DNA from: Chloroflexota bacterium
GTDB lineage: Bacteria; Chloroflexota; Limnocylindria; Limnocylindrales; CSP1-4
Length of the DNA: 28,297 nt
Assembly: GCA_041299865.1 (NCBI GenBank)
Contig: JBFYUV010000154.1
Coordinates: 1 to 28,297 of the forward strand
Direction of reading: 5' to 3'
Made by a program: the position numbers and the translations under genes. The notes beneath the pieces were generated by a model. The model saw nothing but the letters and a program-made list of their open reading frames with translations, was not told the origin of the DNA and did no database searches. Below, piece after piece: positions 4,187 to 19,891 of this stretch (positions are counted from its first letter, which is position 1; each line of letters begins with the position of its first letter).

Positions 4187-4275
4187 GGCTCGCCTCCAGG
4201 TGAGGCGCGTATCCGTGTCAGCCGCGCCCTGCCCTTCGGCGACGCCTGCCGGTCCATGCGCTACTGTCGGCCGTG

Positions 4276-5538
4276 ATGGGTGACGAGCGGGTGACGCCGG
4301 CGACCACGCGCGGTGCCACCATCGAGTTCGACCATGTCAGCAAGCGTTACGCCCCCGCCACGCGCGGTGCCATGGCGCAGGGCGCGGTGGAGGACCTCAC
4401 GCTGACGGTGCCCGCGGGACGCATCTGCGTCCTCGTCGGCCCCTCGGGCTGCGGCAAGACCACGACCCTCAAGATGGTGAACCGGCTCATCGAGCCAAGC
4501 ACCGGCCGGATCCTCATCGACGGGCAGGACATCGGCAGCCGCGACGTCACCGAGCTGCGCCGCAGTATCGGCTACGTCATCCAGCAGACCGGGCTCTTCC
4601 CTCACCAGACCATCGCCCAGAACGTGGCCACGGTGCCGCGCCTGCTGGGCTGGACCGAGACCCGCCAGAGGTCCCGCACCGACGAGCTCCTGGCGCTCGT
4701 GGGTCTTGAGCCCGGACGATACCGGGAGCGCTATCCGAGCCAGCTCTCCGGCGGCGAGCGGCAGCGCGTGGGGGTGGCTCGCGCCCTGGCCGCGGACCCG
4801 CCGGTCATGCTCATGGACGAGCCCTTCGGCGCGGTCGACCCCATCGTCCGCGAACGTCTCCAGAACGAGTTCCTGCGACTGCAGGAGGGCCTCGCCAAGA
4901 CGATCCTCTTCGTGACCCATGACATCGACGAGGCCATCAAGATGGGCGACCTCGTGGTCGTCATGGAGCAGGGCGGCCGCATCGCCCAGGCCGGGGCGCC
5001 GGCCGACCTGCTGGCCCAGCCCGCCTCGGCGTACGTGGCCCGCTTCGTCGGTGCCGACCGCGGCCTCAAGCGTCTCTCGCTCTACCGGGTGGCGGACGTG
5101 GCCCTCGTCGAGGCACCCCTGGCGCGCGTGGGGGAAGCCAGGCAGGACGTCCGCGCGCGGGCCGAGCGCAGCGGGGATCGCCACGTGCTTCTCGTGGACG
5201 ATCGTGATCGACCGTTGGGCTGGCTGGACGCCCATGACCTTCGCTCGGAGGGCCCGCTCGGCGAGCCCGATGCCGACCCCATGTCCCCGCTGCTCGACCG
5301 GCGCACCACCCTCAAGGACGCCACGTCGCTGCTACTGGATGAGGAAGTGCGCAGCGGCATCGTGGTCGATCGCAGCGGAGGGGTCCTTGGCCTCCTGACC
5401 CTGGAGGCGGTCATGGGCTTCATGCGCGACGACCGCTCACGCGAGGTGCCCCCGGACATCGCGGATGCCGTGGCGGAGGTGCTGGCCCATCCGGCCGGCG
5501 CCCACGACCACGGTCCGGACGAGTCGAGCCCCGCGTGA
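4276..5538 (+). CDS. Opu/ProV-type ABC transporter ATP-binding protein with C-terminal CBS pair
   Basis: GPSGCGKTTTLKMVNRLIEP, LSGGERQRVGVARALAADP, MLMDEPFGAVDP, FVTHDIDEA, then a CBS-like region. Start is ATG 4276 or in-frame GTG 4273, downstream of TACTGT (4262-4267). Confidence 0.9.
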   Translation: MGDERVTPATTRGATIEFDHVSKRYAPATRGAMAQGAVEDLTLTVPAGRICVLVGPSGCGKTTTLKMVNRLIEPSTGRILIDGQDIGSRDVTELRRSIGYVIQQTGLFPHQTIAQNVATVPRLLGWTETRQRSRTDELLALVGLEPGRYRERYPSQLSGGERQRVGVARALAADPPVMLMDEPFGAVDPIVRERLQNEFLRLQEGLAKTILFVTHDIDEAIKMGDLVVVMEQGGRIAQAGAPADLLAQPASAYVARFVGADRGLKRLSLYRVADVALVEAPLARVGEARQDVRARAERSGDRHVLLVDDRDRPLGWLDAHDLRSEGPLGEPDADPMSPLLDRRTTLKDATSLLLDEEVRSGIVVDRSGGVLGLLTLEAVMGFMRDDRSREVPPDIADAVAEVLAHPAGAHDHGPDESSPA

Positions 5539-6197
5539 TCGAGATCCGCTGGGACTGGATCGCTGAGCACCTCGATGATGTCGCCGACAAGACCTGGCAG
5601 CATCTCCAGCTGCTGGTCATCCCCATGCTGGCGGGCTTCTTCATCGCCCTGCTCCTGGGCGTGCTGGCGCTCCGGCGTCCGGGCACCGTCGGGCCGGTCA
5701 CGGCCATCACGGGGCTCCTTTACACCATCCCCAGCCTGGCGGCCTTCGCCCTCCTGCGGCCCATCTTCGGCCTGACGCTGGCCACGGCCGTGATCCCGCT
5801 GACGGCCTACACGCTGCTCATCCTGTACGTCAACACGGTAGCCGGCCTGCGCTCGGTGCCTGCGGAGGTCAACGAGGCCGCCACGGCCATGGGCTACAGC
5901 AGTGCCAGCCGCTTCTGGCGCGTGCAGTTGCCGCTGGCCGTGCCGCTCATCATGGCCGGCGTCCGGGTGGCCGCGGTGACCACCATCGGCCTGGTCACGG
6001 TGGCCTCGATCATCGGCGGGGACCGCTTCGGCGGCCTCGGCCAGTTCATCACCGAGGGACTCCAGACCTCCTTCGACACGAAGGTCTACCTCGGGGCGGT
6101 CGGGTCGGTCATGCTGGCCTTCGTCGTCGACATCCTGCTGCTGGGCACCCAGCGCCTGCTGACTCCCTGGGCGCGGGCTCGGACCTTGTCCACGTGA
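5535..6197 (+). CDS. Opu/ProW-type ABC transporter permease
   Basis: LYTIPSLA, EAATAMGYS...RFWRVQLPLAVPLIMAGVR (EAA motif), GGLGQFI. GTGA overlap with the ATPase gene. Confidence 0.9.
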   Translation: MIEIRWDWIAEHLDDVADKTWQHLQLLVIPMLAGFFIALLLGVLALRRPGTVGPVTAITGLLYTIPSLAAFALLRPIFGLTLATAVIPLTAYTLLILYVNTVAGLRSVPAEVNEAATAMGYSSASRFWRVQLPLAVPLIMAGVRVAAVTTIGLVTVASIIGGDRFGGLGQFITEGLQTSFDTKVYLGAVGSVMLAFVVDILLLGTQRLLTPWARARTLST

Positions 6198-6967
6198 GCG
6201 GCCTGGAGGCGCTGCTGGCCTACCTCGCGGACGGTGGTGCCTGGCAGGGACCCGCAGGCGTCCCGAGCCGCCTGGTCGAGCACCTCGTTCTCTCCGGCCT
6301 GGCCGTGCTGACGGCCAGCCTGGTGGCACTGCCGTTGGGGTTCTACATCGGCCACACGGGACGGTTCCAGCTGCTCGGGCTGAACCTCGCCAACATCGGC
6401 CGAGCCATCCCCTCGTATGCGGTCATGGTCATGGTCTTTCCGGTCGCCCTGGCCGCGGCGGCCCCGCTCGGCTATGACCCCCGCCTAGGTCTCACCTTCC
6501 TGCCCATCTTCGTGGCCATGACGCTGCTGGCCATCCCGCCCATCCTCGTGGCTACCTTCGCCGGCATCGCCGAGGTGGACCGAGATGTCGTCGAGTCGTC
6601 TCGGGGCATGGGCCTCACCGAGCGTCAGATCCTGCGGCGCGTCGAGCTGCCCCTGGGGCTGCCGGTCATCATCGGCGGCTTCCGCGTGGCGACCCTGCAG
6701 ATCATCGCCACGGCGACGCTCGGGGCGGTCCTCTCCGGGGGTGGCTTCGGGCGCTTCATCATCGACGGCCTGGCCAGGCGGGACGAGGGCATGCTGTACG
6801 CGGGAGTCCTGCTCGTGGCCGCCCTCGCCATCGGCATCGACCTGCTGCTGGCTGGCCTGCAGCGACGCTTCACGCCACGGGGTGTCAAGGTGGCATCCGG
6901 CGAAGAGGTCGTGGAGGCCATCGGAGATCTCGGCTCCGTCGCGCCTCCGTCCCTGCGACGCGCCTGA
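6194..6967 (+). CDS. Opu/ProW-type ABC transporter permease
   Basis: ANIGRAIPS, ESSRGMGLTERQILRRVELPLGLPVIIGGFR, GGFGRFIIDG. GTGA overlap with the previous permease. Confidence 0.9.
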   Translation: MSGLEALLAYLADGGAWQGPAGVPSRLVEHLVLSGLAVLTASLVALPLGFYIGHTGRFQLLGLNLANIGRAIPSYAVMVMVFPVALAAAAPLGYDPRLGLTFLPIFVAMTLLAIPPILVATFAGIAEVDRDVVESSRGMGLTERQILRRVELPLGLPVIIGGFRVATLQIIATATLGAVLSGGGFGRFIIDGLARRDEGMLYAGVLLVAALAIGIDLLLAGLQRRFTPRGVKVASGEEVVEAIGDLGSVAPPSLRRA

Positions 6968-7062
6968 CGCTGTCATCCCGCGGTCGCGGCGGACAGAGTA
7001 CGGTTATGTTTCGGCCGTGGCCGCCAGACGGGCGGCCGGCCAGCAGTCCCAGGGAGGTTGCC

Positions 7063-8016
7063 ATGCGGCATCACCGCAGACTCGCCCTCGGTGCGTCGCT
7101 CCTGGCCGCTCTGGCCACGCTCGGCGCGTCCGGTGGCGCCATCGTGTCGGCCCAGGAGCAGCCCACGGTCCGCGTCGGATCGGATGACTTCTACGAATCG
7201 AAGCTCATGGCCGAGATCTATGCGCAAGCCCTGGAGGGCGCCGGCTACACGGTCGATCGGCAGCTCGGGCTGGGCAGCCGCGATACGCGCGCCCCGGCCT
7301 TCGAGGAGGGCCAGGTGGACCTGGTGCCTGAGTACGTGGGCTCCGGCCTGGGTTACTACGTGCTGGCCTCCGACGATCCCGGCCTGGCCGCGCTGGCCGT
7401 GGGCGGCGACGGCGAGACGAACCGCGCCAACCTGCAGGCCGCCTACATGCTGCTGGGCATCGAAGCCACAGTGCTGGGCATGACGCCCGGCGAAGACACC
7501 AACGCGGCGGCCATCCGCGCGGATACGGCCGCCGAGCTCGGCCTCTCGAAGCTGAGTGACGTGCCGCCCGTGGCCGACCAGCTCGTCTTCGGCCTGCCCC
7601 CGGAGTGCGAGACCCGGCCGCTCTGCGCTGGCGCTCTCGAGCAGTACGGCATCGACTTCGCCACCATCCAGAAGGAATCGCTGGCTGCCTGCGGGGCTGA
7701 GATCGCCGATGCCCTGGCCGGGGGGGCGGTCGACTTCGGCTGGCTCTGCTCCACCCAGCCGGCCATCGCTCAGAACGGCTTCGTCGTCCTCGAGGATGAC
7801 CTGGACACCCAGCCTGCGGAGAACCTGGCCCCGGTCGTCCGAGACGACTTCCTGGCCCAGGTCGAGGGCGGCGCTGCCACGCTGGCGGCCATCCTCGACC
7901 CTGTCTCGGCGGCCATCAGCACCGAGATCCTGACCGAGCTTGGCGTGCGCGTCGCCATCGACCAGGAGGACGTCGAGGACGTCGCGGCCGACTTCCTGGC
8001 CGGCCTCGACTCCTGA
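7063..8016 (+). CDS. OpuAC/OsmF-family ABC substrate-binding protein (about 317 aa), ligand uncertain
   Basis: SD GGGAGG before ATG 7063. Signal peptide MRHHRRLALGASLLAALATLGASGGAIVSA, then VRVGSDDFYES...AEIYAQALE, DLVPEYVGS, VVLEDD...QPAENLAPVVR. Confidence 0.85.
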   Translation: MRHHRRLALGASLLAALATLGASGGAIVSAQEQPTVRVGSDDFYESKLMAEIYAQALEGAGYTVDRQLGLGSRDTRAPAFEEGQVDLVPEYVGSGLGYYVLASDDPGLAALAVGGDGETNRANLQAAYMLLGIEATVLGMTPGEDTNAAAIRADTAAELGLSKLSDVPPVADQLVFGLPPECETRPLCAGALEQYGIDFATIQKESLAACGAEIADALAGGAVDFGWLCSTQPAIAQNGFVVLEDDLDTQPAENLAPVVRDDFLAQVEGGAATLAAILDPVSAAISTEILTELGVRVAIDQEDVEDVAADFLAGLDS

Positions 8017-8129: not shown

Positions 8130-9071
8130 TCAGAAGCCTCGCTCGGCGAGCCACTCGCGATTGGCCGTGTGCAGGGCCAGCAGCGCCTCCGGCGTGTCCG
8201 CCGGTTTCAGGAAGCGATCCTGCTCGATGACGACCCAGCCTTCCCAGGCGCGGGCCTTGAGACCCTCGAGGAAGCCATCCAGACCGGTCGTGCCGAGACC
8301 CAGCTGGCAGAAGACGCCCCGGTCCCAGGCCTCCATGAGCCCGCCGCCGGAGCTGGCGACCTGCCGCAGGACGGCGAGGTCACAGTCCTTGACGTGGACG
8401 TGTCGCACACATCCGGCATAGCTGTCCAGTAGCTCCAGCGGATCCGCGCCACCGAAGAGTGCGTGACCGGTGTCCAGGCACATGCCCACGAGCGACGTGT
8501 CGAGGGCATCGAAGACGGCGTGGATCTCAGCCGCCGATTCCACGTAGCTTCCGGCGTGGAAGTGCAGCACGGGATCGAAGCCGCGCTCGCGGGCCGCCTC
8601 GCCGGCTCGATGCAGGTTGTCGATGAGGACCCCGAAGCGCTCCTTGGGCAGGGCGGCCTCGGGGTGTTCCGGGATCTGGCCCGCCCAGCGCATGCGCTCG
8701 GGCTCGACGGAGGCATCGGCCAGCACGGCCTTGGGCATGACGTCGTCCGGCCGGCCGGCGGCCAGCAGGTCGAGCACGCCGATCATCCACTCGCGATCCT
8801 CGGCCGCGTGCTCAGCCCGGCTGAAGCGCTGCGGCAGGAAGGCCCCCACCAGCGAGAGGCCACGAGCGGCCAGCCGCGACCTCAGCTGCCCCGCGTCGCC
8901 GAAGTAGCCTGGCGGTCCGAGCTCCGTGCCGGCATAGCCGGCCGTCGCCATTTGGTCCAGCATGTGCTCCGGCTGGAGCTGCAGGGGGTCATCCTCGGTC
9001 TTCTCGAAGACCCCCCACGAGCATGGGGCTGCCGCGACCCTGACGCCGCCCGAACCGTTCGAGCCGCTCAT
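8130..9071 (-). CDS. iolE: myo-inosose-2 dehydratase (xylose-isomerase-like TIM barrel; about 313 aa)
   Basis: AAAPCSWGV, GYAGTELGPPGY, LHFHAGSYVE, MCLDTGH, HVHVKD, VVIEQD metal ligands. Last gene of the iolB-iolD operon. Start moved to ATG 9071 behind GGGAAGGGG. Confidence 0.8.
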   Translation of the reverse strand: MSGSNGSGGVRVAAAPCSWGVFEKTEDDPLQLQPEHMLDQMATAGYAGTELGPPGYFGDAGQLRSRLAARGLSLVGAFLPQRFSRAEHAAEDREWMIGVLDLLAAGRPDDVMPKAVLADASVEPERMRWAGQIPEHPEAALPKERFGVLIDNLHRAGEAARERGFDPVLHFHAGSYVESAAEIHAVFDALDTSLVGMCLDTGHALFGGADPLELLDSYAGCVRHVHVKDCDLAVLRQVASSGGGLMEAWDRGVFCQLGLGTTGLDGFLEGLKARAWEGWVVIEQDRFLKPADTPEALLALHTANREWLAERGF

Positions 9072-9121: not shown

Positions 9122-10993
9122 CTAGACGAAGGAGCGCTCGCGGGCCAGGTTGCCCTCGTACGCGAGGCGTGCCGCGCGGACACGCTCGGACGTCGAGACC
9201 TCGGCCACGGGCACGTCCCACCAGGACTCGTAGTCCGGTACCGGCGGCTCGGGGTTGACCTCGACGACGATGACCACCGGTCCACCCTGCATGCCTTCCG
9301 CGGTGGCCAGGGCACCCTCCAGCTCGGCAGGCGTGCTGGCCATCAGCACGCGTGCGCCCAGGCTGGCAGCGTTGGCGGCGAAGTCGATGGGCAGGACCTC
9401 GCCGGTGAAGGTGCCGCTGGACGGGTCACGGAAGCGGAAGTCGTTGAAGGGATTGTCCCCGCCGCAGGCGGCCGAGAGGTTGCGGATGCAGCGGTAGCCG
9501 TGGTTGTCCAGGAGCACGATCGTCATCGAGACGCGCTCCTGGCAGGCCGTCAGGATCTCATTAGCGAGCATCAGGTAGGACCCATCGCCGACCATGACGT
9601 AGACGCGGCGGCCTGGCTCGGCCATGGCCACGCCCAGGCCTCCGGCGATCTCGTAGCCCATCGTCGAGAAGCCGTACTCCATGTGATAGGTGTCCGGACC
9701 GCTGGCACGCCAGATCTTGTGCATGTCGCCGGGCAGCCCGCCGGCCGCGCAGACGACCACGCCGTCGGCGCCGGCCGCCTCGTTGACGAGCCGGATGACC
9801 TCCGGCTGGGAGACATGCTCGCTGGCTGCCAAGTGGCGAACACGATCGACCTCGGTGTTCCACTCGCCGCGCAGCCGTTCGACGAGCGCCAGACGCTCAG
9901 CCGAGGCGCCGCGCCAGGCGCGTGCCTCCAGGGCCGCCTGCAGCTCCTCCAGGGTGACGCGGGCATCACCGTGAAGCGGCAGCGAGGCTGCCTTGGCGGC
10001 GTCCAGCTCAGCCACGTTGATGGAGACGAAGGCGACCTCGGGATCCTGCCACGAGGACCAGCTCATGGTCGGGAAGTCGGAGAGCCGCGTGCCGACGGCG
10101 ATGACGAGGTCGGCGTCGCGAGCGATGCTGTTGGCGGCCGTGCCACCGGCCGATCCCAGCGCCCCCACCTGGAAGGGATGGTCCCAGGGCAAGGCGCCCT
10201 TGCCGGACTGTGTCTCCGAGACCGGGATGCCGAAGCGACGGGCGAAGGCATCCAGTGCCGCGCTGGCGTCGCTGTAGATGACGCCGCCACCGGCCACGAT
10301 CATGGGGCGTTGCGCGGCAGCGATGCGCTCTGCGGCCCGCGCCAGCAGGGAGGCGTCCGGCCGTGGTCGAGCGATGACCCAGGTGCGCGGCGCCAGGAGC
10401 TCCTCCGGCCAATCCCAGGCCTCGGCCTGCACGTCCTGGGGCAAGGCCAGCGTCACGGCACCGGTCTCGGCCGGCGAGGTCAGCACGCGCATGGCCGCCG
10501 GCAGGGCGTCGATGAGCATCTCCGGCCGCTCGATGCGGTCGAAGTAGCGCGACACCGGGCGCAGGGCGTCGTTGACCGAGAGGTCGCCTGCCTCCGGCCG
10601 CTCGAGCTGCTGGAGGACGGGCTTCACGCGCCGCGTGGCGAAGCGATCGCCCGGCAGCAGCAGGACGGGCAGCCGGTTGACCGTGGCATTGGCGGCTCCG
10701 GTCACGAGGTTGGTGGCGCCGGGGCCGATGGACGTCGTGCAGGCGAAGGTGCGCAGGCGGCGGCTCTGCTTGGCGAAGGCCGCGGCCGTATGGACCATGG
10801 CTTGCTCGTTGCGCGTCTGGTAGAAGCGCACGCTGTCCTGGGCAGCTTCCAGCGCCTCACCCATGCCGGCCACGATGCCGTGGCCGAAGATGCCGAAGAC
10901 GCCCTCGAAGAAGCGCTGGCGATGGCCGTCGCGTTCCACGTGCTGGTTGGCCAGCCAGGTCACGACGGCCTGGGCGACGGTGGTGCGTGGCAT
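9122..10993 (-). CDS. iolD: 3D-(3,5/4)-trihydroxycyclohexane-1,2-dione acylhydrolase (ThDP-dependent; 623 aa)
   Basis: TVAQAVVTWLANQ, GIFGHG, RNEQAMVH, TTSIGPGATN, PVLQQLE, NDALRPVSRYFDRIERPE, HMEYGFSTMGYEIAG, GDGSYLM...DNHGY, WWDVPVAEVS. Confidence 0.95.
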   Translation of the reverse strand: MPRTTVAQAVVTWLANQHVERDGHRQRFFEGVFGIFGHGIVAGMGEALEAAQDSVRFYQTRNEQAMVHTAAAFAKQSRRLRTFACTTSIGPGATNLVTGAANATVNRLPVLLLPGDRFATRRVKPVLQQLERPEAGDLSVNDALRPVSRYFDRIERPEMLIDALPAAMRVLTSPAETGAVTLALPQDVQAEAWDWPEELLAPRTWVIARPRPDASLLARAAERIAAAQRPMIVAGGGVIYSDASAALDAFARRFGIPVSETQSGKGALPWDHPFQVGALGSAGGTAANSIARDADLVIAVGTRLSDFPTMSWSSWQDPEVAFVSINVAELDAAKAASLPLHGDARVTLEELQAALEARAWRGASAERLALVERLRGEWNTEVDRVRHLAASEHVSQPEVIRLVNEAAGADGVVVCAAGGLPGDMHKIWRASGPDTYHMEYGFSTMGYEIAGGLGVAMAEPGRRVYVMVGDGSYLMLANEILTACQERVSMTIVLLDNHGYRCIRNLSAACGGDNPFNDFRFRDPSSGTFTGEVLPIDFAANAASLGARVLMASTPAELEGALATAEGMQGGPVVIVVEVNPEPPVPDYESWWDVPVAEVSTSERVRAARLAYEGNLARERSFV

Positions 10994-11023
10994 CCGGACC
11001 CCCTCTCTCGACTCAGCGTCCGC

Positions 11024-12112
11024 TCAGGCCCTGACATCCGGGTTGGGGATGAGCAGGTCGTCGATGATGGCCACCAGCTCCCAGTACGACGAGACGAAGG
11101 CTCGCAGCGTGCGCATGGTGGCGCCGTAGGTGTCGAACTGGGCTGGCGTCAGGGCCTCGGGCTCGTAGGCCTTGACGAACTCCGGGACGCGCGCCATGAG
11201 CTCGTCGACGTAGACCGACGGGACCGGATCGTGCCAGCGATCCCTGACCTCGACGTCCGAGGCGTTGAAGAGCCGCTGCCAGTTGGCCGGGATCGTCATG
11301 GAGACATCACCGCCGATGAGCTCCGACCAGTGGAGGTGGTGGCGATAGGCGGCCGCCAGCAGGCGCGCCCGGTAGCCGCGCTCCTCGAAGATGGCGGCGG
11401 CGCGCTTGAAGACGGCGATGCCGGCCCAATCCCCGGCCGCTGGGTGGATGGTGATGCCGTCGCGATCACAGGACTTCTTCACCCAGTCGTCCGTGCGGCC
11501 GATCATGATCGTGCAGATGGGTGACATCCAGGAGGTGTCATGGCCTTCGGCCTCGCGCCGGGCCAGGGCGCGCTCCACGGCCGCCCCCACGGCCACCGCC
11601 TGCGACACCGTGAAGGAGACGGTGGCGTTGATGTTCATGCCCTCGTACGTGGCCTGCTCGATGGCCTCCAGGCCGGCCGCCGTGGCCGGGAACTTGATCT
11701 GCACGTTGGGCGCCAGGGTGTCGAAATGGCGCGCCTGTTCGAGCATCTTCTGCGGGGAGCGATTGAGCGTCGGGTCGATCTGGATGGAGAGGCGGCCCTT
11801 CTGTCCGTGGTGCTGCTGGTAGATGGGCTCCAGCATCTTCCAGCCCCGGATGGCCATCTCCTCGATGACCTGCCAGGCGATCTGCTGGTCGGTCCAATCG
11901 AGATGCTCGGCGGCGATCTCGCGCACGCGCGGCGCCCAGGTGTCGTACTCCTGCTTCATCACCGAGCCCACGATGGTGGGGTTGGTGGTGGCCCCCACGG
12001 CCCCGTTCTCGATGGCGTAGGTAAGCTCAGCGGCGTTGCAGGAGTCGTTCCAGTAGTCGGTGGGGAAATCCGTCGCCGTGCGCAGCAGCGGGCTCGCCAT
12101 GGTCGTGGCCAT
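11024..12112 (-). CDS. Transaldolase/fructose-6-phosphate-aldolase fold enzyme with an atypical active site (362 aa), embedded in the iol operon
   Basis: WNDS, GATTNPT, RLSIQIDP, Schiff-base VQIKFPAT (K140), INATVSFTVSQA, TIMIGRTDDW, AAAYR. SD AAGGAG upstream. Confidence 0.85.
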   Translation of the reverse strand: MATTMASPLLRTATDFPTDYWNDSCNAAELTYAIENGAVGATTNPTIVGSVMKQEYDTWAPRVREIAAEHLDWTDQQIAWQVIEEMAIRGWKMLEPIYQQHHGQKGRLSIQIDPTLNRSPQKMLEQARHFDTLAPNVQIKFPATAAGLEAIEQATYEGMNINATVSFTVSQAVAVGAAVERALARREAEGHDTSWMSPICTIMIGRTDDWVKKSCDRDGITIHPAAGDWAGIAVFKRAAAIFEERGYRARLLAAAYRHHLHWSELIGGDVSMTIPANWQRLFNASDVEVRDRWHDPVPSVYVDELMARVPEFVKAYEPEALTPAQFDTYGATMRTLRAFVSSYWELVAIIDDLLIPNPDVRA

Positions 12113-12134
12113 CGATCGCTCCTTGTCCGTGGTC

Positions 12135-12974
12135 CTAGCGTGGGCTCGTGGGATCCCAGTCCATCAGCCAGGCATGATCCCTGTCGAGGGTGAAATGCCA
12201 TGCCCGGTGGGGGCCGGCCATCACGTTGAGGTAGTAGGCATCGTACCCGGCGGGGGCGCCCACGGGATGGTAGCCGCGGGGCACGAGGATGACGTCGCCG
12301 TCACCCGGGGCGAAGGACTCGTCGAGTGTCCGGTCCGCCGTGTAGACGCGCGCGAAGGCCCAGCCCTCCGGTCGCGCGAACCGGTAGTAGTAGAGCTCCT
12401 CGAGATAAGCCTCCCGGGGTGGATCCTCCGTGTCGTGCTTGTGAGGGGGGTAGCTCGACCAGTTGCCACCGGGCGTGAAGACCTCGAAGAGGATGAGCCG
12501 GCCGGCCGGCGCCGTGGGCGGCAGCAGGTGATGGATGCGACGCTCGGTGACACCGTGCCCACGCGTCTCGACGTGGATATCACCGGCCTCGATGAGGCGC
12601 TCGTGATACTCGTCCGCGCCTGGCGCGTCGGCGATCACGACCGTGGCCTGTGTCTCGGCCACGATCTCCACGTCCGTGCCGGGTGCCAGCAGGAGCACGG
12701 GAGGTGGCGGCCCGGCGAAGACGCTGGCGCGGCTGCCCAGCGAGGCATAGCGCTGGCGGCCGGCGCGCGCGCTGACCGTGCCCTCAACCACGATGACGGC
12801 GACCTCGTGGTCGTCAGCCGGACGGGCGAGCCCGGCACCGGCAGCCAGCCGATGCTCGGCGAAGCCCACATAGCGCCAGCCGGCATCCTCGGGCCGGATG
12901 TCATGGACACGTCCGTTGTCCGGGTCCGGGTTCCCGGCTCGGCGATGGAGGGCGGTGCCCGGGCTGGTCGTCAT
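12135..12974 (-). CDS. iolB: 5-deoxy-glucuronate isomerase (KduI/IolB cupin; 279 aa)
   Basis: AGWRYVGF, EVFTPGGNWSSYPPHKHD, LEELYYYRF, LVPRGYHPVGAPAGYDAYYLNVMAGP. SD AGGAG. Confidence 0.95.
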   Translation of the reverse strand: MTTSPGTALHRRAGNPDPDNGRVHDIRPEDAGWRYVGFAEHRLAAGAGLARPADDHEVAVIVVEGTVSARAGRQRYASLGSRASVFAGPPPPVLLLAPGTDVEIVAETQATVVIADAPGADEYHERLIEAGDIHVETRGHGVTERRIHHLLPPTAPAGRLILFEVFTPGGNWSSYPPHKHDTEDPPREAYLEELYYYRFARPEGWAFARVYTADRTLDESFAPGDGDVILVPRGYHPVGAPAGYDAYYLNVMAGPHRAWHFTLDRDHAWLMDWDPTSPR

Positions 12975-13135: not shown

Positions 13136-14194
13136 ATGAGCGCAGGCAGACCAGCCACCGTTCGGGATGTCGCCGCTCGTGCGGGTGTCTCGATCGCCAC
13201 GGTGAGCCGCGCCCTGCGGGGGCACGCCAACGTGGAGCCGGCCACGCGCCAGCGGGTCGAGGAGGCCGCCCGCGCCCTCAGCTACCGACCCTCGGGCGTG
13301 GCCCGCTCGCTGCGGCTGCGCGCCACCCGCACCATCGGCCTCATCGTCACGGACATCGAGAACCCCTACTTCCCGCAGGTCGTGAGCGCTGTCGAGGATG
13401 CCGCCCGCGAGCGCGGCTACTCCGTCCTGCTCGCTGACGGCCGCCGCGATCCGGAGCGCGAGATCGAGTCGCTCGAGGTGCTCGCCGAGCGTGAGGTGGA
13501 TGGCCTCATCATCGCCAGCACGACCCTCACCCTGCGGCACCAGGTGCGCATCCGCGAGGTGCCCTGCCCGGTCGTCATCGTCAACAGCGAGTCGACGGTC
13601 TCGGCTGTGCCGGCCGTGCTCTCCGACAATGCCGGCGGCGGTCGGGTGGCTGCCGAGCACCTGCTGGGCCTGGGGCACCGGCGGCTGGCGTACCTGGCGG
13701 CGCCGTCCGCGGATGACCGGGCCGTCCACGAGCGCATCGAGGGTGTCCGCGCCGCCCTCTGGGCTGAGGGCCTGGCACGCGGCGCCCTCATCATCGTCCC
13801 GGCGGCCCCGGGCGTGGACGGTGGTGCCCTCGCGGCGGTCATGGCCATGGGCGCGGACAGCGCCATCAGTGCCCTCATCTGTTCCAACGACCTGACCGCC
13901 ATCGGTGTCATCCGCGGCCTCCGCAGCCTCGGCCTGCGAGTGCCCGCGGACGTCAGCGTGGTGGGCTTCGACGACATCGAGATGGCCGCCTACGTGGACC
14001 CACCGCTCACGACCGTCCGCCAGGCGACCGATGAGATGGGCCACTGGGCGGTGGCCAGTCTCCTGCAGCGCATCGACCGGGGACGTGAAGCCACGGCCGG
14101 CCAGGTCGGCGGCACGCCCGGCCGCACCGTGCGCCTGCCGGTCACGCTCGTGACACGGGGCTCCACGGCGCCGGCCGGCCGCACCCCGGCCTGA
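13136..14194 (+). CDS. LacI-family transcriptional regulator, probable local inositol regulator (352 aa)
   Basis: ATVRDVAARAGVSIATVSRAL HTH, YRPSGVARSL hinge, TIGLIVTDIENPYF, NDLTAIG, VSVVGFDDI, PPLTTVRQ. Confidence 0.92.
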   Translation: MSAGRPATVRDVAARAGVSIATVSRALRGHANVEPATRQRVEEAARALSYRPSGVARSLRLRATRTIGLIVTDIENPYFPQVVSAVEDAARERGYSVLLADGRRDPEREIESLEVLAEREVDGLIIASTTLTLRHQVRIREVPCPVVIVNSESTVSAVPAVLSDNAGGGRVAAEHLLGLGHRRLAYLAAPSADDRAVHERIEGVRAALWAEGLARGALIIVPAAPGVDGGALAAVMAMGADSAISALICSNDLTAIGVIRGLRSLGLRVPADVSVVGFDDIEMAAYVDPPLTTVRQATDEMGHWAVASLLQRIDRGREATAGQVGGTPGRTVRLPVTLVTRGSTAPAGRTPA

Positions 14195-14407: not shown

Positions 14408-15402
14408 GTGAGGGTCACCCTCTTCGGCGCCGGTCGCATCGGGCCCCTGCATGCACGGACGTTGCTGACGACGGGCGCGGTCGATCACTTGGTGATCGTG
14501 GACGTCGTCCCTGAGCGTGCCGCGGCCGCTGCGGAGGCGCTTGGTGGCAGCGTCGCTCCGTCCGTCGACGAGGCGCTCGCCACAGCCGACGCGGCTGTCA
14601 TCTGCGCCTCCACGGACGACCATCCGGGCCTCATCAGGGCAGCCATCGGCCGCGGCATCCCGACCTTCTGCGAGAAGCCGCTGGCGGCCAGCCTTGCCGA
14701 GTCCATCGCCGTCCGCCGTGACATCGAGGCTGCCGGCGTACCCTTCCAGCTTGGCTTCCAGCGACGCTTCGACCCTGCCTACGTGGAGGCCAGGCGCCTC
14801 ATCGAGTCGGGGGCCATCGGCGATATCCACGCCCTCTCGCTGCGCAGCCATGACCCGGAGCCGGCCTCCGAGGAGTTCATCGCCTCCTCCGGCGGCATGT
14901 TCCGCGACCTCTCCATCCACGACCTGGACATCCTGCGGTTCCTCTCCGGTCGCGAGGTGGACGAGGTCTATGTCATCGGCTCGGCCAAGGGTTTCCCTGT
15001 CTACGAGAAGTACGACGATCTCGCCAACGCCGTGGCCGTCATGCGCCTCGATGACGGCACCCCGGTGGCGCTCACCTGGACACGGCATGACCCCCTGGGT
15101 CACGATGTGCGCACGGAGGTCTTCGGCTCGCGTGACAGCGTGAGCGTGGGTCTTGGCCCGCGCATGCCGCTGCGCTCGGTGGAGCCCGGCGTGCCGCCGC
15201 CGTCCGGCCCACCCTGGCACATCTTCCTTGACCGCTGGGACGACGCCTATCGCGACGAACTCATCGCCTTCGTGGATGTCGCCCGCGGTGCCCGCCCGAG
15301 CCCTTGCACGGCCAAGGACGGCGTGGAGGCACTGCGTATCGCCGAAGCCCTCACGGTCTCGGCAGCGGAGCACCGTCCCGTGAGGCTCGCGGAGATCACG
15401 GC

Positions 15403-15406
<4 letters not shown>
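14408..15406 (+). CDS. iolG: Inositol 2-dehydrogenase (Gfo/Idh/MocA family; about 332 aa)
   Basis: MRVTLFGAGRIG Rossmann fold, FCEKPLA, GFQRRFDPAY, SGGMFRDLSIHDLD. Start moved to GTG 14408, 7 nt after AAGGAGGT. Stereoisomer specificity cannot be read from the sequence. Confidence 0.8.
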
Positions 15407-16227
<821 letters not shown>

Positions 16228-16238
16228 GGGATGAGGGC

Positions 16239-17267
16239 ATGACCGACGCGATGAGTGCAGGGGCTGGATCGGACCTCGGCGACACGGGCGCGCGATCGGC
16301 GGGGGTCATCCGTGTCATGGGCTGGTTCGACCGCTGGGGCGTGCTGTTGATGGTGGCCATCATGGCCCTGCTGTCCTGGCTGGCCCAGCCCGACGTCTTC
16401 CTGAGCGAGAGGAACATCTTCAACATCTTCCGCCAGACGGCGTTCTACCAGATGCTGGCGCTGGGCCAGTTCATCGTCATCGTCACGGCCGGCATCGACC
16501 TCTCCATCGGCTCTGTCCTGGCGCTCTCGATGATGTGCGCCGCCATCCTTGCCGACGGCGGGGCTGCCTGGCCGCTCGTCATGGTCGTCCCGCTGCTCGT
16601 CGGCTTCCTCGTCGGGAGCGTGAACGGGCTGGGCCTCACGAAGCTGCACATGCCCCACCCCTTCATCATGACGCTGGGCATGATGTTCGTGGCCCGGGGG
16701 GCCACGTACCTCATCTCCGGCGGGCGGCCCATCACCGGCATGCCGCCCGAGGTGACCTGGCTGGGCTCCGGCAACATCGAGATCCTGGGCCTCCACATCC
16801 CGGTCAGCCTCGTCATCGTCGTCATCATGTTCGTCATCGCCTGGTTCTTCCTGCAGCACCTGCGCACGGGACGGCACATCTTCGCCCTCGGAGGGAACCC
16901 GCAGGCAGCGCGCGTCTCGGGCATCAACGTGGACCGCACACTCGTCATCGCCTATGCCCTGTGTGGCTTCATGGCAGGCTTCGCCGGTTTGCTGCTGGCC
17001 GGGCGCACGAACTCGGGTTTCCCCAACGCCGGCGAGGGGGACGAGCTCGTGGCCATCTCCGCGGTCATCATCGGTGGCGCCAGTTTCTTCGGTGGCCGCG
17101 GCACCGTTCTGGGTGTCTTCGCGGGCGTCCTCGTCATCGGCATGCTGCGCAACCTGCTGAACCTCTCCAACGTGCAGGTCTTCTGGCAGCAGGTGCTCAT
17201 CGGCGTCGTCATCATCGCCGTGGTGGCCTTCGACGTGTTCCGCCGTCGATTGGCAGCCGCCTCGTAG
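16239..17267 (+). CDS. RbsC-type sugar ABC permease (342 aa)
   Basis: TAGIDLSIGS, HPFIMTLGMM, TGRHIFALGGNPQAARVSGIN, ELVAISAVIIGGASFFGGRG. Confidence 0.92.
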   Translation: MTDAMSAGAGSDLGDTGARSAGVIRVMGWFDRWGVLLMVAIMALLSWLAQPDVFLSERNIFNIFRQTAFYQMLALGQFIVIVTAGIDLSIGSVLALSMMCAAILADGGAAWPLVMVVPLLVGFLVGSVNGLGLTKLHMPHPFIMTLGMMFVARGATYLISGGRPITGMPPEVTWLGSGNIEILGLHIPVSLVIVVIMFVIAWFFLQHLRTGRHIFALGGNPQAARVSGINVDRTLVIAYALCGFMAGFAGLLLAGRTNSGFPNAGEGDELVAISAVIIGGASFFGGRGTVLGVFAGVLVIGMLRNLLNLSNVQVFWQQVLIGVVIIAVVAFDVFRRRLAAAS

Positions 17268-17282
17268 TCCACGGTCAGCCCG

Positions 17283-17299
17283 CGGGTCGGATCGACCCG
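17283..17299. other. Hairpin CGGGTCG-GAT-CGACCCG in the permease-SBP spacer
   Basis: Perfect 7-bp stem 15 nt after the permease stop. Function (attenuation or mRNA stabilisation) unknown. Confidence 0.35.
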
Positions 17300-17433
17300 G
17301 ATCCATCGCGGCCCCCGGCCGTGATGACGGAGGGCACGGAAGGGAGGTGACAGAGCAGGCTCTGAGGCGCCATCATGCAGGTAGCGGGCAGTCCGGGCTT
17401 CGGCGCTCGCTGAAGACCCAGGTAGGAGGAGAC

Positions 17434-18396
17434 ATGAAGGCAACACGCTTCCTCGCGGTCGGAGGGGCCGCGATGCTGGCCCTCGCGATCGTGGGACCAG
17501 TCGCTGCACAGGATGAGAGCCCGGCAGCTGCGAGCAAGGACCCAGGTGCCGCGGCCGGCGCCAAGCTCTTCGTCAACATGAAGGGCCCGTCGGCGGGTAA
17601 CCCGTTCTGGGCGCTCGTCGAGCAGGGTGCCGTGCAGGCCGGCGCGGACTACGGCGTGGACGTCCAGGTCGTGGCCCCCTCAGCCGAATCCGACATCCCC
17701 GGGCAGATCGCCCTCATCGAGGACAACGCAGCACAGGGCGCTGCCGGAATGGCCATCGCCGTGACGGACGCCGTGGCCCTCAACCCGGCCATCCAGGCCG
17801 CCATGGACCAGGGCGTCAAGGTCGTCTGGGTCGACTCGGGCGGTGACAACGAGGGCGTCACCTACATCGGCACGGACAATGCCGTCGGCGCCGCCCTGGC
17901 CGGCAAGTACCTCTGCGACACCCTGGAGCCCGGCAGTAAGGTAGCTATCCTCCAGGGCCTCATCACCACCACCACCGGCATGGCCCGAGCCGATGGCTCC
18001 AAGGCGGCCGTCACCGAGTGTGGCCTGGACCTCGTTATGGAAGTGCCCGCCAACTGGGACCGCGCCCAGGGTCTAGCGGCCACCGAGGACATCATCACGC
18101 AGCACCCGGACCTGGCCGGCATCTTCGGCAGCAATGACGAGATGGCCCTCGGGGCCGTGGAGGCACTGCGTGCCGCCGATCTCCTCGACCAGGTCACGGT
18201 CGTCGGCTACGACGCCAACCCGGATGCCCGAGAGGCCGTCCTGGCCGGTGACATGGAAGCCACCATCGCCCAGAACCCCATCAACATGGGTTACTTCGGC
18301 GTGGAGAGCCTCATCAAGCTCATCAACGGCGAGACGCTCGATCCCACCATCGACACGGGCGTCGAGCTCATCACCGCGGAGAACGCCGCCTCGTAA
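17434..18396 (+). CDS. RbsB-like sugar/inositol ABC substrate-binding protein (about 320 aa)
   Basis: SD AGGAGGA before ATG 17434. Signal peptide MKATRFLAVGGAAMLALAIVGPVAA, then NPFW, IGTDN, ANWDR, SNDEMALGA, VGYDA, TIAQNP. Confidence 0.9.
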   Translation: MKATRFLAVGGAAMLALAIVGPVAAQDESPAAASKDPGAAAGAKLFVNMKGPSAGNPFWALVEQGAVQAGADYGVDVQVVAPSAESDIPGQIALIEDNAAQGAAGMAIAVTDAVALNPAIQAAMDQGVKVVWVDSGGDNEGVTYIGTDNAVGAALAGKYLCDTLEPGSKVAILQGLITTTTGMARADGSKAAVTECGLDLVMEVPANWDRAQGLAATEDIITQHPDLAGIFGSNDEMALGAVEALRAADLLDQVTVVGYDANPDAREAVLAGDMEATIAQNPINMGYFGVESLIKLINGETLDPTIDTGVELITAENAAS

Positions 18397-18436: not shown

Positions 18437-18470
18437 CGCCGGCACCGTGAGGTGCCGGCGGTTCGTTGTC
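18437..18470 (+). terminator. Intrinsic terminator of the iolG-ABC operon
   Basis: CGCCGGCACC-GTGA-GGTGCCGGCG (10-bp stem, GNRA loop) followed by GTTCGTTGTC. Confidence 0.7.
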
Positions 18471-18509
18471 AGGGGGTCTCAGGCCCAGGGTCACGAGGTA
18501 CCTCGTCCC

Positions 18510-19406
18510 TCAGCGCACGCTGTGCGCCAGCCGCTGCTTCAGCTGGTCGAGGGTGGGCACGGAGTTCATGCCCGGCCCTTCCACGAGCAGGCTGCCCGCC
18601 AGTGCCCCCAGGTGCAGGTCCCGGCCCATGTGGCGGCCCTCCGAGCCCGCCACGATCCGAGCTGCCACGAGGCCGGCCAGCATGGTGTCACCGGCGCCGG
18701 TGGCGTCGATCTCGATGGGCGACGGGACGCTGGGGTAGGTACGTGCTTCCACGAGACGATGATCCTGGAAGCGGATGAGCAGACCGCCCAGGAGTCCGGC
18801 CGTCAGCAGCAGTTCCGCAGAGGGGGGCATCCATTGGCCGATGCTGCGCACCGGCAGGTCGCCGGGGATGTCGTGCCGGCTGACGGCCAGGATGTCCGCG
18901 CGGCGGACGAGGAGGGAAGGTCCTGGTTCCAGTGGCCGCACCCGAACTCCAGGTTGCAGGTGGCGCAGGATGCCCTGCCAGGCCAGGGCCACACAAGCCT
19001 CAGGCGGAGGTGCGCTGGCCCACTCGTCGTGGATCTCGCTGGCCACCGGCGCCAGCACCCAGGCGGGCACGTCACGCCAGCGCCCGGGCAGCGCGGCCAC
19101 GGGTACCGGATCGCTGGGACCATCGCAGGTCTGGACGCGTCCCGCCAGGGTCTCCGTGTTGCGGAAGACGGGCCCCTTGGCCAGCGGCACTTCGATGATC
19201 TCCGCCCCGGCGTCGCGGATCAGGTCGAGCTCATCGGCCGTACGGGCCTCGTCATCGAGCCCGAGCAGGACGCCGGTGCGCACGCCCAGGCGCGCCAGGG
19301 CGAGGGCACCGTAGGTCACGCCGCCACCCAGCAGCCAGCCTCGCGGTGCCTCATCGTTGAGATCGCGCGTGGCCGCACCGACGATGACCACATCCGGCTT
19401 GCGCAT
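18510..19406 (-). CDS. PfkB/ribokinase-family kinase, substrate unknown (298 aa)
   Basis: N-terminal VVIVGAATRD...GGGVTYGALALARLG and C-terminal anion hole IDATGAGD. SD GAGGG. Confidence 0.85.
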   Translation of the reverse strand: MRKPDVVIVGAATRDLNDEAPRGWLLGGGVTYGALALARLGVRTGVLLGLDDEARTADELDLIRDAGAEIIEVPLAKGPVFRNTETLAGRVQTCDGPSDPVPVAALPGRWRDVPAWVLAPVASEIHDEWASAPPPEACVALAWQGILRHLQPGVRVRPLEPGPSLLVRRADILAVSRHDIPGDLPVRSIGQWMPPSAELLLTAGLLGGLLIRFQDHRLVEARTYPSVPSPIEIDATGAGDTMLAGLVAARIVAGSEGRHMGRDLHLGALAGSLLVEGPGMNSVPTLDQLKQRLAHSVR

Positions 19407-19492
19407 CCAGCCCTCGCTTCATCCCTGCTTCCCGCCCGCACGCCATGCCGTCGCTCGCCGGCGGCGCGACCGCGAAGCCTATACTCGTGCCC

Positions 19493-19891
19493 GTGACCCT
19501 GCGCGACGGGGATGTCCCCCTCTTCTTCTACGAGCTCCACGAGAGTGACAGCGACATCTTCGCGGACGTCCTGCTCGCTCACGACGTCGAGTACGACGAA
19601 GCGGAATTCTTGGAGCTGGTCATCGCATCGCGTGCCCGGGTCATCGAGGGCTTCCGCGAGGATTCGCTCATCGAGGCCATCGCGGCGGACCTGGCCGAGA
19701 AGTCCGGCTTCCTCATCATCGACGATACGCAGCTGCGCGTGGCCGTCAACGTATCGGCCATGGACGATGGCACGTTCGTGTCAGACATCACGGTGGCCAG
19801 CCGGGGCGGGTCGGACGTGACGGACTACCGCACGCTGCTCGTGGACGTGGAGCCGGACGACGCCGTCTGGGGCGACGACCGCCTCGACTGA
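19493..19891 (+). CDS. Highly acidic hypothetical protein (about 132 aa)
   Basis: Clean high-GC codon usage and a protein-like sequence (LFFYELHESDSDIFADVLLAH). TATACT (19480-19485) lies 7 nt before GTG 19493. The ORF track start at 19445 is the alternative. Confidence 0.7.
   Translation: MTLRDGDVPLFFYELHESDSDIFADVLLAHDVEYDEAEFLELVIASRARVIEGFREDSLIEAIAADLAEKSGFLIIDDTQLRVAVNVSAMDDGTFVSDITVASRGGSDVTDYRTLLVDVEPDDAVWGDDRLD

Follow-up and report, generated by a model that had tools for sequence, protein, structure and literature searches.

We analysed a 28,297-nucleotide stretch of DNA from a Chloroflexota bacterium (contig JBFYUV010000154.1; hereafter the window), in which a minus-strand gene at positions 11,024–12,112 encodes a 362-residue protein of the transaldolase (TAL)/FSA superfamily. 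The gene shares an operon with genuine iolB and iolD genes of inositol catabolism, and its product belongs to a large and distinct clade in which three active-site residues of transaldolases are replaced by Gln, Met and Ala. We propose that the protein is a Schiff-base enzyme, acting through Lys140, that cleaves unphosphorylated 5-dehydro-2-deoxy-D-gluconate (DKG) and most likely passes the dihydroxyacetone (DHA) unit to an aldose phosphate. We offer this reading as a whole tentatively, as a serious possibility that falls a little short of even; a DKG-type substrate as such is well supported by the gene context, though unproven.

The protein is a TIM-barrel enzyme with the TAL/FSA fold. A preliminary description of this DNA had the coordinates of the gene right; it runs on the minus strand from an ATG at 12,112–12,110 to a stop codon at 11,026–11,024, and a Shine–Dalgarno sequence read directly in the DNA (AAGGAG, 12,119–12,124, minus strand) lies 6 nt 5′ of the start. 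The product matches Pfam TAL_FSA (PF00923) with 130.1 bits (gathering score 27, E = 1.3 × 10−37). The clade scores under the cut-offs of all curated TAL/FSA families: the best NCBIfam match of the protein is NF002881 (114.8 bits, cut-off 367), followed by TIGR00876 (81.6 bits, cut-off 233.75), the FSA equivalog TIGR00875 (52.5 bits, cut-off 245.95) and TIGR00874 (40.7 bits, cut-off 396.2). By phmmer, the nearest solved relatives in sequence are the transaldolases of Corynebacterium glutamicum (E = 2 × 10−23) and Neisseria gonorrhoeae; identity is 20–24% to long-form transaldolases and about 23% to Escherichia coli TalB, and tblastn gave no match to TalB or FsaA in the window at E = 10−3. Foldseek matched an AlphaFold2 model (pLDDT 91.8, pTM 0.89, computed from 37 homologues) to 3R5E, 3CLM and 7OEY at TM 0.76–0.81 and E of about 10−16, the best matches being the N. 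gonorrhoeae (3CLM) and C. glutamicum (3R5E) transaldolases with TM of about 0.8.

Active-site positions were assigned from a MAFFT alignment of the protein with E. coli TalB and FsaA (both from NC_000913.3) and 170 full-length homologues of 30–99% identity. The residue pairs that had been proposed by eye were all reproduced: D23, N44, Q111, K140, M203, R206, A255 and R257 correspond to TalB D17, N35, E96, K132, F178, R181, S226 and R228, respectively, and the alignment further pairs N162 with N154, T164 with T156 and T201 with S176. On the FSA side, Q111 falls on Q59, M203 on the Tyr131 position and T164 on the T109 position. In a phmmer comparison with the two solved transaldolases, Q111 aligns with the Glu of SIEVDP/SLEVSP and M203 with the second Phe of SFFVSR, so that both methods give Gln111 and Met203, and neither a Glu nor a Tyr, at the acid–base positions. 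The register of A255 and R257 is backed by strand 250–254 of the model; the tail of a HMMER local alignment to 3R5E, which set W262 under the Trp of RPLW, was rejected as misregistered and of low confidence, as it is the MAFFT/TalB register that matches this strand. The codons, all on the minus strand, are those of the predicted Schiff-base Lys140 (11,693–11,695), Gln111 (11,780–11,782), Met203 (11,504–11,506), Ala255 at the position of the phosphate-binding Ser226 (11,348–11,350), and Arg206 (11,495–11,497) and Arg257 (11,342–11,344), which are predicted to form an anion-binding pair; all were assigned from the alignment, and Gln111 and Met203 from phmmer as well.

The Gln, Met and Ala substitutions are a trait of the family and not a quirk of one sequence. 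Position 111 is Gln in 163 of the 170 homologues, and Glu is not among the residues listed there; position 203 is Met in 155 and Phe in 2; position 255 is Ala in 146, Gly in 11 and Ser in 4. The core is retained at the same time, with Lys at K140 in 163, Arg at R206 in 162 and Arg at R257 in 159, and with K140, D23, N44 and T164 each at least 95% conserved. At the phosphate site, R206 and R257 preserve both Arg, and Ala255 takes the place of the Ser. The whole pattern, Lys140 included, is invariant in 37 close homologues, and all 78 copies from 77 genome loci are identical at the active-site positions. A strictly conserved Tyr was sought in the alignment of the 170 homologues and none was found, Y20 and Y256 being conserved at 72% and 71%. 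Residues W21, C25, E29, D208, H258, H261 and W262 are near-invariant and specific to the family. A reading as a pseudo-enzyme was rejected, given the strong conservation of all core catalytic residues.

According to PMC13259622, which draws on Stellmacher et al. (2015), transaldolases pair Glu96 with Phe178 and FSA arranges Gln59, Thr109 and Tyr131 as a water-binding triad round a catalytic water, with the Tyr as proton shuttle; exchanging the TAL and FSA residues interconverts the activities. Gln with Met is a third configuration, as the preliminary description had suggested from a single sequence, and the alignment extends it to a large, distinct clade of the superfamily.

The immediate gene context points to inositol catabolism. 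The minus-strand order is iolB–tal–iolD–iolE, with the TAL-family gene separated from its neighbours by 22 and 30 nt. Immediately upstream lies iolB, for 5-deoxy-glucuronate isomerase (12,135–12,974; TIGR04378, 298 bits, cut-off 205; Pfam KduI), and immediately downstream iolD, for trihydroxycyclohexane-1,2-dione acylhydrolase (9,122–10,993; TIGR04377, 869 bits, cut-off 715), both on the minus strand. Next comes a minus-strand gene for a 313-residue IolE-like inosose dehydratase with a xylose-isomerase-like TIM barrel (8,130–9,071; Pfam AP_endonuc_2; TIGR04379, 141 bits, under the cut-off of 290).

We then compared this context across 80 related loci with up to 10 kb per side, mostly from metagenome-assembled genomes (MAGs), by clustering the neighbouring open reading frames (ORFs) and naming recurrent families with Pfam and NCBIfam; 77 of the 80 could be scored for adjacency. 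IolB or IolD occurs within 10 kb in 38 loci, with IolB directly upstream of the TAL-family gene in 24 of the 77 scored loci and IolD directly downstream in 15. Another recurrent partner is a dehydrogenase that matches TIGR01722 with 535 bits (cut-off 448.5), which identifies it as CoA-acylating methylmalonate/malonate-semialdehyde dehydrogenase (MMSDH). It is present in 25 of the scored loci and directly downstream in 18, and in one locus (L090) its start overlaps the stop of the TAL-family gene by 4 nt.

Three kinds of neighbourhood recur, and these classes are coherent sub-clades: in 58 of 61 cases the nearest neighbour shares the class. Members of different classes are about 60% identical to each other and do not differ in their active-site residues. 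Class A (38 loci) comprises LacI, IolB, TAL, IolD, IolG and IolE, and frequently an aldehyde dehydrogenase as well. Class B (about 19 loci, for example, L019, L022, L028, L034, L043, L045, L056, L059, L064, L066, L069 and L078, around the TAL-family gene at 10,001–11,090) runs from a phosphoenolpyruvate (PEP)-utiliser/PigC-like protein, GntR, an unknown 300-residue protein and a three-subunit xanthine-dehydrogenase-like enzyme through UPF0261 and a PEP-hydrolase-like protein to TAL, MMSDH, a small cupin and a split transketolase, and also includes a C_GCAxxG protein; the PEP-utiliser/PigC-like gene is divergent to the TAL-family gene in 17 loci. In class C (L007, L009, L010, L011 and L017), the genes directly upstream of TAL encode an ABC transporter, a luciferase-like oxidoreductase, a Zn-dependent alcohol dehydrogenase and an IolE-like TIM-barrel protein, and these five loci have no IolB or IolD within 10 kb. 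A split transketolase stands beside the TAL–MMSDH pair in 12–13 loci, including one iol cluster, L049, where the TAL-family gene (10,001–11,086) is accompanied by IolB, MMSDH, IolG, IolE, LacI and IolD together with the transketolase.

The known aldolases for DKG 6-phosphate are IolJ and a DUF2090 domain fused to IolC (PMC9007349). Inositol users without IolJ have been noted (PMC6741124, PMC13311982); Gaiella occulta and Solirubrobacter soli, both able to grow on inositol, carry iolABCDEG and lack iolJ (PMC6741124). We searched the 80 loci for these missing steps, the queries being GatY, FbaA, FbaB and DhaKLM of E. coli together with the IolC and DUF2090 sequences of L041 and L067. An IolJ-type class II aldolase was found in none of the 80, in a search that had no positive control in these data, and neither class I FbaB nor DhaKLM was found in any; DUF2090 occurs in one, fused to IolC in a Roseiarcus MAG (L067). 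IolC occurs in four (L041, L051, L057 and L067), and a PfkB-like kinase of the type found in the window in L001–L004 and L087. Among the 38 iol-linked loci, IolC was not found in 34, and among the 20 of these with full 10-kb flanks, a PfkB-type kinase was not found in 14. Within the window itself, a search for IolC, an IolJ-type aldolase, DUF2090, MMSDH, DhaKLM and transketolase returned none of them, and one PfkB-like gene only. A full-text literature search, covering open-access papers and bioRxiv only, found no TAL-family enzyme assigned to inositol catabolism.

The residues and this context lead us to infer what the enzyme acts on, what it produces, which acceptor it uses and how the transfer proceeds. 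The product of IolB is DKG, CH2OH-CO-CHOH-CHOH-CH2-COO−, which shares the donor end of fructose 6-phosphate (C6–C5–C4 being the dihydroxyacetone unit) and has its carboxylate carbon at the position of fructose 6-phosphate C6. DKG would then act as a look-alike of fructose 6-phosphate, its C1 carboxylate taking the place of the phosphate. The enzyme would bind it unphosphorylated, form a Schiff base at Lys140 and cut the C4–C3 bond, releasing malonate semialdehyde, which a CoA-acylating semialdehyde dehydrogenase would convert to acetyl-CoA. The lysine-bound dihydroxyacetone would most likely go to glyceraldehyde 3-phosphate, yielding fructose 6-phosphate, or to erythrose 4-phosphate, yielding sedoheptulose 7-phosphate. 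One enzyme would thereby stand in for the IolC kinase and the IolJ/DUF2090 aldolase; because fructose 6-phosphate still needs phosphofructokinase, the net ATP cost would be unchanged.

The TAL fold appears suited to unphosphorylated DKG because the Schiff-base Lys, the donor-hydroxyl ligands and the two anion-binding Arg are kept. In the TalB–DHA complex (PDB 1UCW), we take D17 and N35, the equivalents of D23 and N44, to be the ligands of the donor C3 hydroxyl, and the free C1 hydroxyl is presumably held by N154 and S176; as N162 and T201, the equivalents of the latter pair, are conserved, an unphosphorylated dihydroxyacetone end can be argued for. Malonate semialdehyde fits as a product because it is the substrate of the MMSDH so often encoded directly downstream. 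Transfer is favoured over release of free DHA because most clusters have neither a kinase nor a DHA-handling gene, because Met203, like the Phe of transaldolases, is hydrophobic and a conserved Tyr is missing, and because transketolase is a frequent neighbour.

The preliminary description had inferred that the active site would fit a carboxylate-tailed substrate such as DKG. The IolB and IolD flanks, the frequent downstream MMSDH and the occurrence of IolJ in none and IolC in four of the 80 loci all speak for such a substrate. The carboxylate tail does not simply explain the change from Glu to Gln, since Gln111 is also kept in distant members that lack both Arg as well as N44; the Gln therefore predates carboxylate binding or is independent of it. 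For the proton transfer itself, a substrate-assisted route is geometrically plausible, in which the β-carboxylate of DKG hydrogen-bonds its own C3 hydroxyl. Judged from sequence, E29 (acidic in 94% of the homologue alignment), D208 (96%), H261 (90%) and H258 (77%) are candidates for a relocated acid–base residue.

Several observations weigh against cleavage of unphosphorylated DKG with transfer of DHA. Canonical transaldolases depend on a Glu that this enzyme lacks, which leaves transferase chemistry uncertain. In about half of the 80 loci there is no iol link within 10 kb; the preliminary description had held that Gln and Met being common in housekeeping transaldolases unlinked to iol genes would count against its view, and the loci outside iol clusters are other catabolic clusters, not pentose-phosphate ones, so that this objection is answered only by half. 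The search for IolJ lacked its control, and IolC, IolJ or a DHA kinase could lie beyond the 10-kb flanks of what are mostly MAGs. Three loci (L041, L051 and L057) combine IolC with the TAL-family gene and have no IolJ or DUF2090, which fits an aldolase for phosphorylated DKG; together with L067 they are hybrid clusters that bear on whether the substrate is phosphorylated.

Lastly, in the window and its closest relatives the locus is flanked at its edge by a PfkB-like kinase gene. This gene (18,510–19,406, minus strand), missed by the preliminary description, encodes a divergent PfkB-like sugar kinase of 298 residues with a DATGAGD motif that is sub-threshold for PfkB (E = 3.4 × 10−4, under the Pfam gathering score), has weak matches to ribokinases and TM0415, and has no NCBIfam match. 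It stands at the end of the iol locus in the closest lineage only (L001–L004 plus L087), and it keeps a phosphorylated substrate possible. A 349-residue ORF at 18,447–19,496 on the plus strand was rejected as spurious, the real gene being this antisense kinase.

Two other enzymatic roles would fit much of the same context. In the first, the protein would be an FSA-like aldolase that splits unphosphorylated DKG into malonate semialdehyde and free dihydroxyacetone, the latter being phosphorylated by a separate kinase. The DKG and malonate-semialdehyde evidence applies equally to this role, Gln111 is of the FSA type and is placed together with Thr164 like the pair in the water-binding triad of FSA, and odd phosphotransfer genes lie nearby, namely, the PfkB-like kinase in the lineage of the window and the PEP-utiliser/PigC-like gene in 17 loci. 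However, position 203 is not a Tyr and no other Tyr is strictly conserved, Tyr131 being the dominant proton shuttle of FSA; no DhaKLM was found in the 80 loci, and most iol-linked loci lack any kinase, so we consider this role rather unlikely.

We are similarly doubtful of the second, in which IolC or the PfkB-like kinase would phosphorylate DKG and the TAL-fold enzyme would replace IolJ alone, cutting DKG 6-phosphate into dihydroxyacetone phosphate (DHAP) and malonate semialdehyde. The three clusters with IolC and without IolJ or DUF2090 speak for it, as does the PfkB-like kinase in the window, L001–L004 and L087. Conversely, IolC is missing from 34 of the 38 iol-linked loci, though it normally clusters with iolB and iolD; N162 and T201, presumably the residues for a free donor hydroxyl, are conserved; and we know of no TAL/FSA-family enzyme that uses a phosphorylated donor such as DHAP. 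The iolJ-less iolABCDEG sets of G. occulta and S. soli (PMC6741124) may also favour replacement of IolJ alone, and Gaiellaceae and Solirubrobacterales MAGs carry the family.

That the gene is an ordinary pentose-phosphate transaldolase (sedoheptulose 7-phosphate:glyceraldehyde 3-phosphate) placed in an iol cluster by chance is highly improbable, for, despite the Pfam TAL_FSA match, the database name 'transaldolase' and the transketolase genes near some loci, it scores far under every curated model, is 23% identical to TalB, has Glu96, Phe178 and Ser226 all replaced family-wide, and keeps company with regulators, transporters and catabolic enzymes.

The family is large. A word-indexed search with the 362-residue protein returned 7,973 proteins at E ≤ 10−5, the best 120 of which are 66–99% identical to it and named just 'transaldolase (family protein)', and when 50%-identity representatives were searched exhaustively, 292 clusters matched at E ≤ 10−30, with full-length members down to about 30% identity still carrying the Gln. 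Scanning one genome per GTDB species for the motifs GRLSIQ[TI][ND]P and MIGR[TL]DDW found the family in at least 581 species, for the most part Chloroflexota and Actinomycetota; among the matches listed, most are Chloroflexota, and Acidimicrobiia, Thermoleophilia/Gaiellales/Solirubrobacterales, Spirochaetales, Terriglobia and one Roseiarcus also appear. Among the related loci, Gaiellaceae and Solirubrobacterales MAGs carry the gene (L037, L046 and L077); a second homologue search, seeded with a Gaiellaceae copy so as to find a cultured carrier (for instance, Gaiella occulta), yielded metagenomic and MAG proteins only.

Among the distant members, five proteins of 31–36% identity (P0140, P0191, P0196, P0208 and P0270) keep Lys140 and Gln111 and lack Arg206, Arg257 and Asn44, and some of them have a Tyr at the Ala255 position. 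They probably make up a subfamily of their own, whose substrate would be neutral and whose proton shuttle may differ. Two gene fusions were also seen: in a 655-residue protein (P0129) the N-terminal half is IolE-like (AP_endonuc_2) and the C-terminal half belongs to the TAL family, and an IolE–IolB fusion (positions 8,218–9,981 of L088) lies directly upstream of the TAL-family gene. Both fusions join pathway partners.

The rest of the locus lies on the plus strand. A LacI-family regulator gene (13,136–14,194) is divergent from the iolB–tal–iolD–iolE operon and is followed by an iolG-like inositol 2-dehydrogenase gene (14,408–15,406; TIGR04380, 289 bits, under the cut-off of 355; Pfam GFO_IDH_MocA) and by genes for the ATPase, permease and periplasmic binding protein of an ABC sugar transporter (15,403–18,396). 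On the other side, a glycine-betaine/OpuA-type ABC transporter (4,273–8,016, plus strand) adjoins the iol operon; its ATPase carries CBS domains, and it has two permeases and an OpuAC binding protein. This adjacency may not be accidental, inositol and betaine both being compatible solutes.

The TAL-family gene probably defines a kinase-free branch of inositol catabolism. If so, bacterial inositol catabolism would have, besides IolJ and DUF2090, a third way of filling its 'missing aldolase' step, unrelated to the other two; the ATP-dependent kinase step would drop out of the gene cluster, and genome-based predictions of inositol use would change for abundant soil phyla, in which the gene is named just 'transaldolase'. 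The broadest version of this claim strikes us as improbable: that a kinase-free 'inositol-TAL' branch is widespread in soil Chloroflexota and Actinomycetota and also embodies a third catalytic solution, working through the β-carboxylate of DKG (C1 carboxylate to C3 hydroxyl, in a six-membered hydrogen-bonded ring) or through a relocated E29, D208, H258 or H261. The family is a natural and strongly conserved counter-example to the rule of Glu96 with Phe178 or Gln59 with Tyr131, and offers a handle on rebuilding the proton relay. FSA and TAL enzymes are workhorses of C–C bond formation, and a member that accepted carboxylate-tailed aldehydes, if this is one, would be useful for biocatalysis.

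With the long-form transaldolases (3R5E, 3CLM and TalB) the protein shares the (β/α)8 fold, at TM of about 0.8 to 3R5E and 3CLM, and it keeps the equivalents of the TalB Schiff-base Lys, Asp17, Asn35, Asn154, Thr156, Ser176 (as Thr), Arg181 and Arg228. It departs from TalB in Glu96 to Gln, Phe178 to Met and Ser226 to Ala, in the additional W21, C25, E29, D208, H258, H261 and W262, and in a context that is catabolic and not pentose-phosphate. FsaA is alike in the Gln at the Glu96 position, the Thr at T109 and the Lys/Asp/Asn core, and it uses a non-phosphorylated dihydroxyacetone unit, as we propose here, whereas the protein has a Met at the Tyr131 position and, with 362 residues, is longer than the members of that short decameric subfamily of about 220.

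The closest parallel in proposed logic is the 6-deoxy-6-sulfofructose transaldolase SftT (PMC7491151), a TAL-family enzyme that acts on an unphosphorylated ketose with an anionic tail, bypasses a PfkB kinase and an aldolase, and frees a C3 aldehyde acid. The iol cluster with transketolase, L049, likewise recalls the bifurcated sulfofructose transketolase/transaldolase pathways. SftT belongs to a short TAL subfamily, however, and the solved BmSF-TAL matches only residues 107–194 of our protein (E of about 10−7); its substrate has a sulfonate tail where we propose a carboxylate, and its gene neighbourhood differs, no sulfoglycolysis genes being seen among the neighbour families of the related loci, which are iol genes, MMSDH, transketolase and transporters instead. 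IolJ and DUF2090 (PMC9007349) would share with the protein the place in the pathway between IolB and MMSDH, the C4–C3 cut and the aldehyde product. They differ in that both need a substrate phosphorylated by IolC and in that their folds, IolJ being a metal-dependent class II aldolase and DUF2090 a LacD-like class I aldolase, are unrelated to that of the TAL-family enzyme described here.

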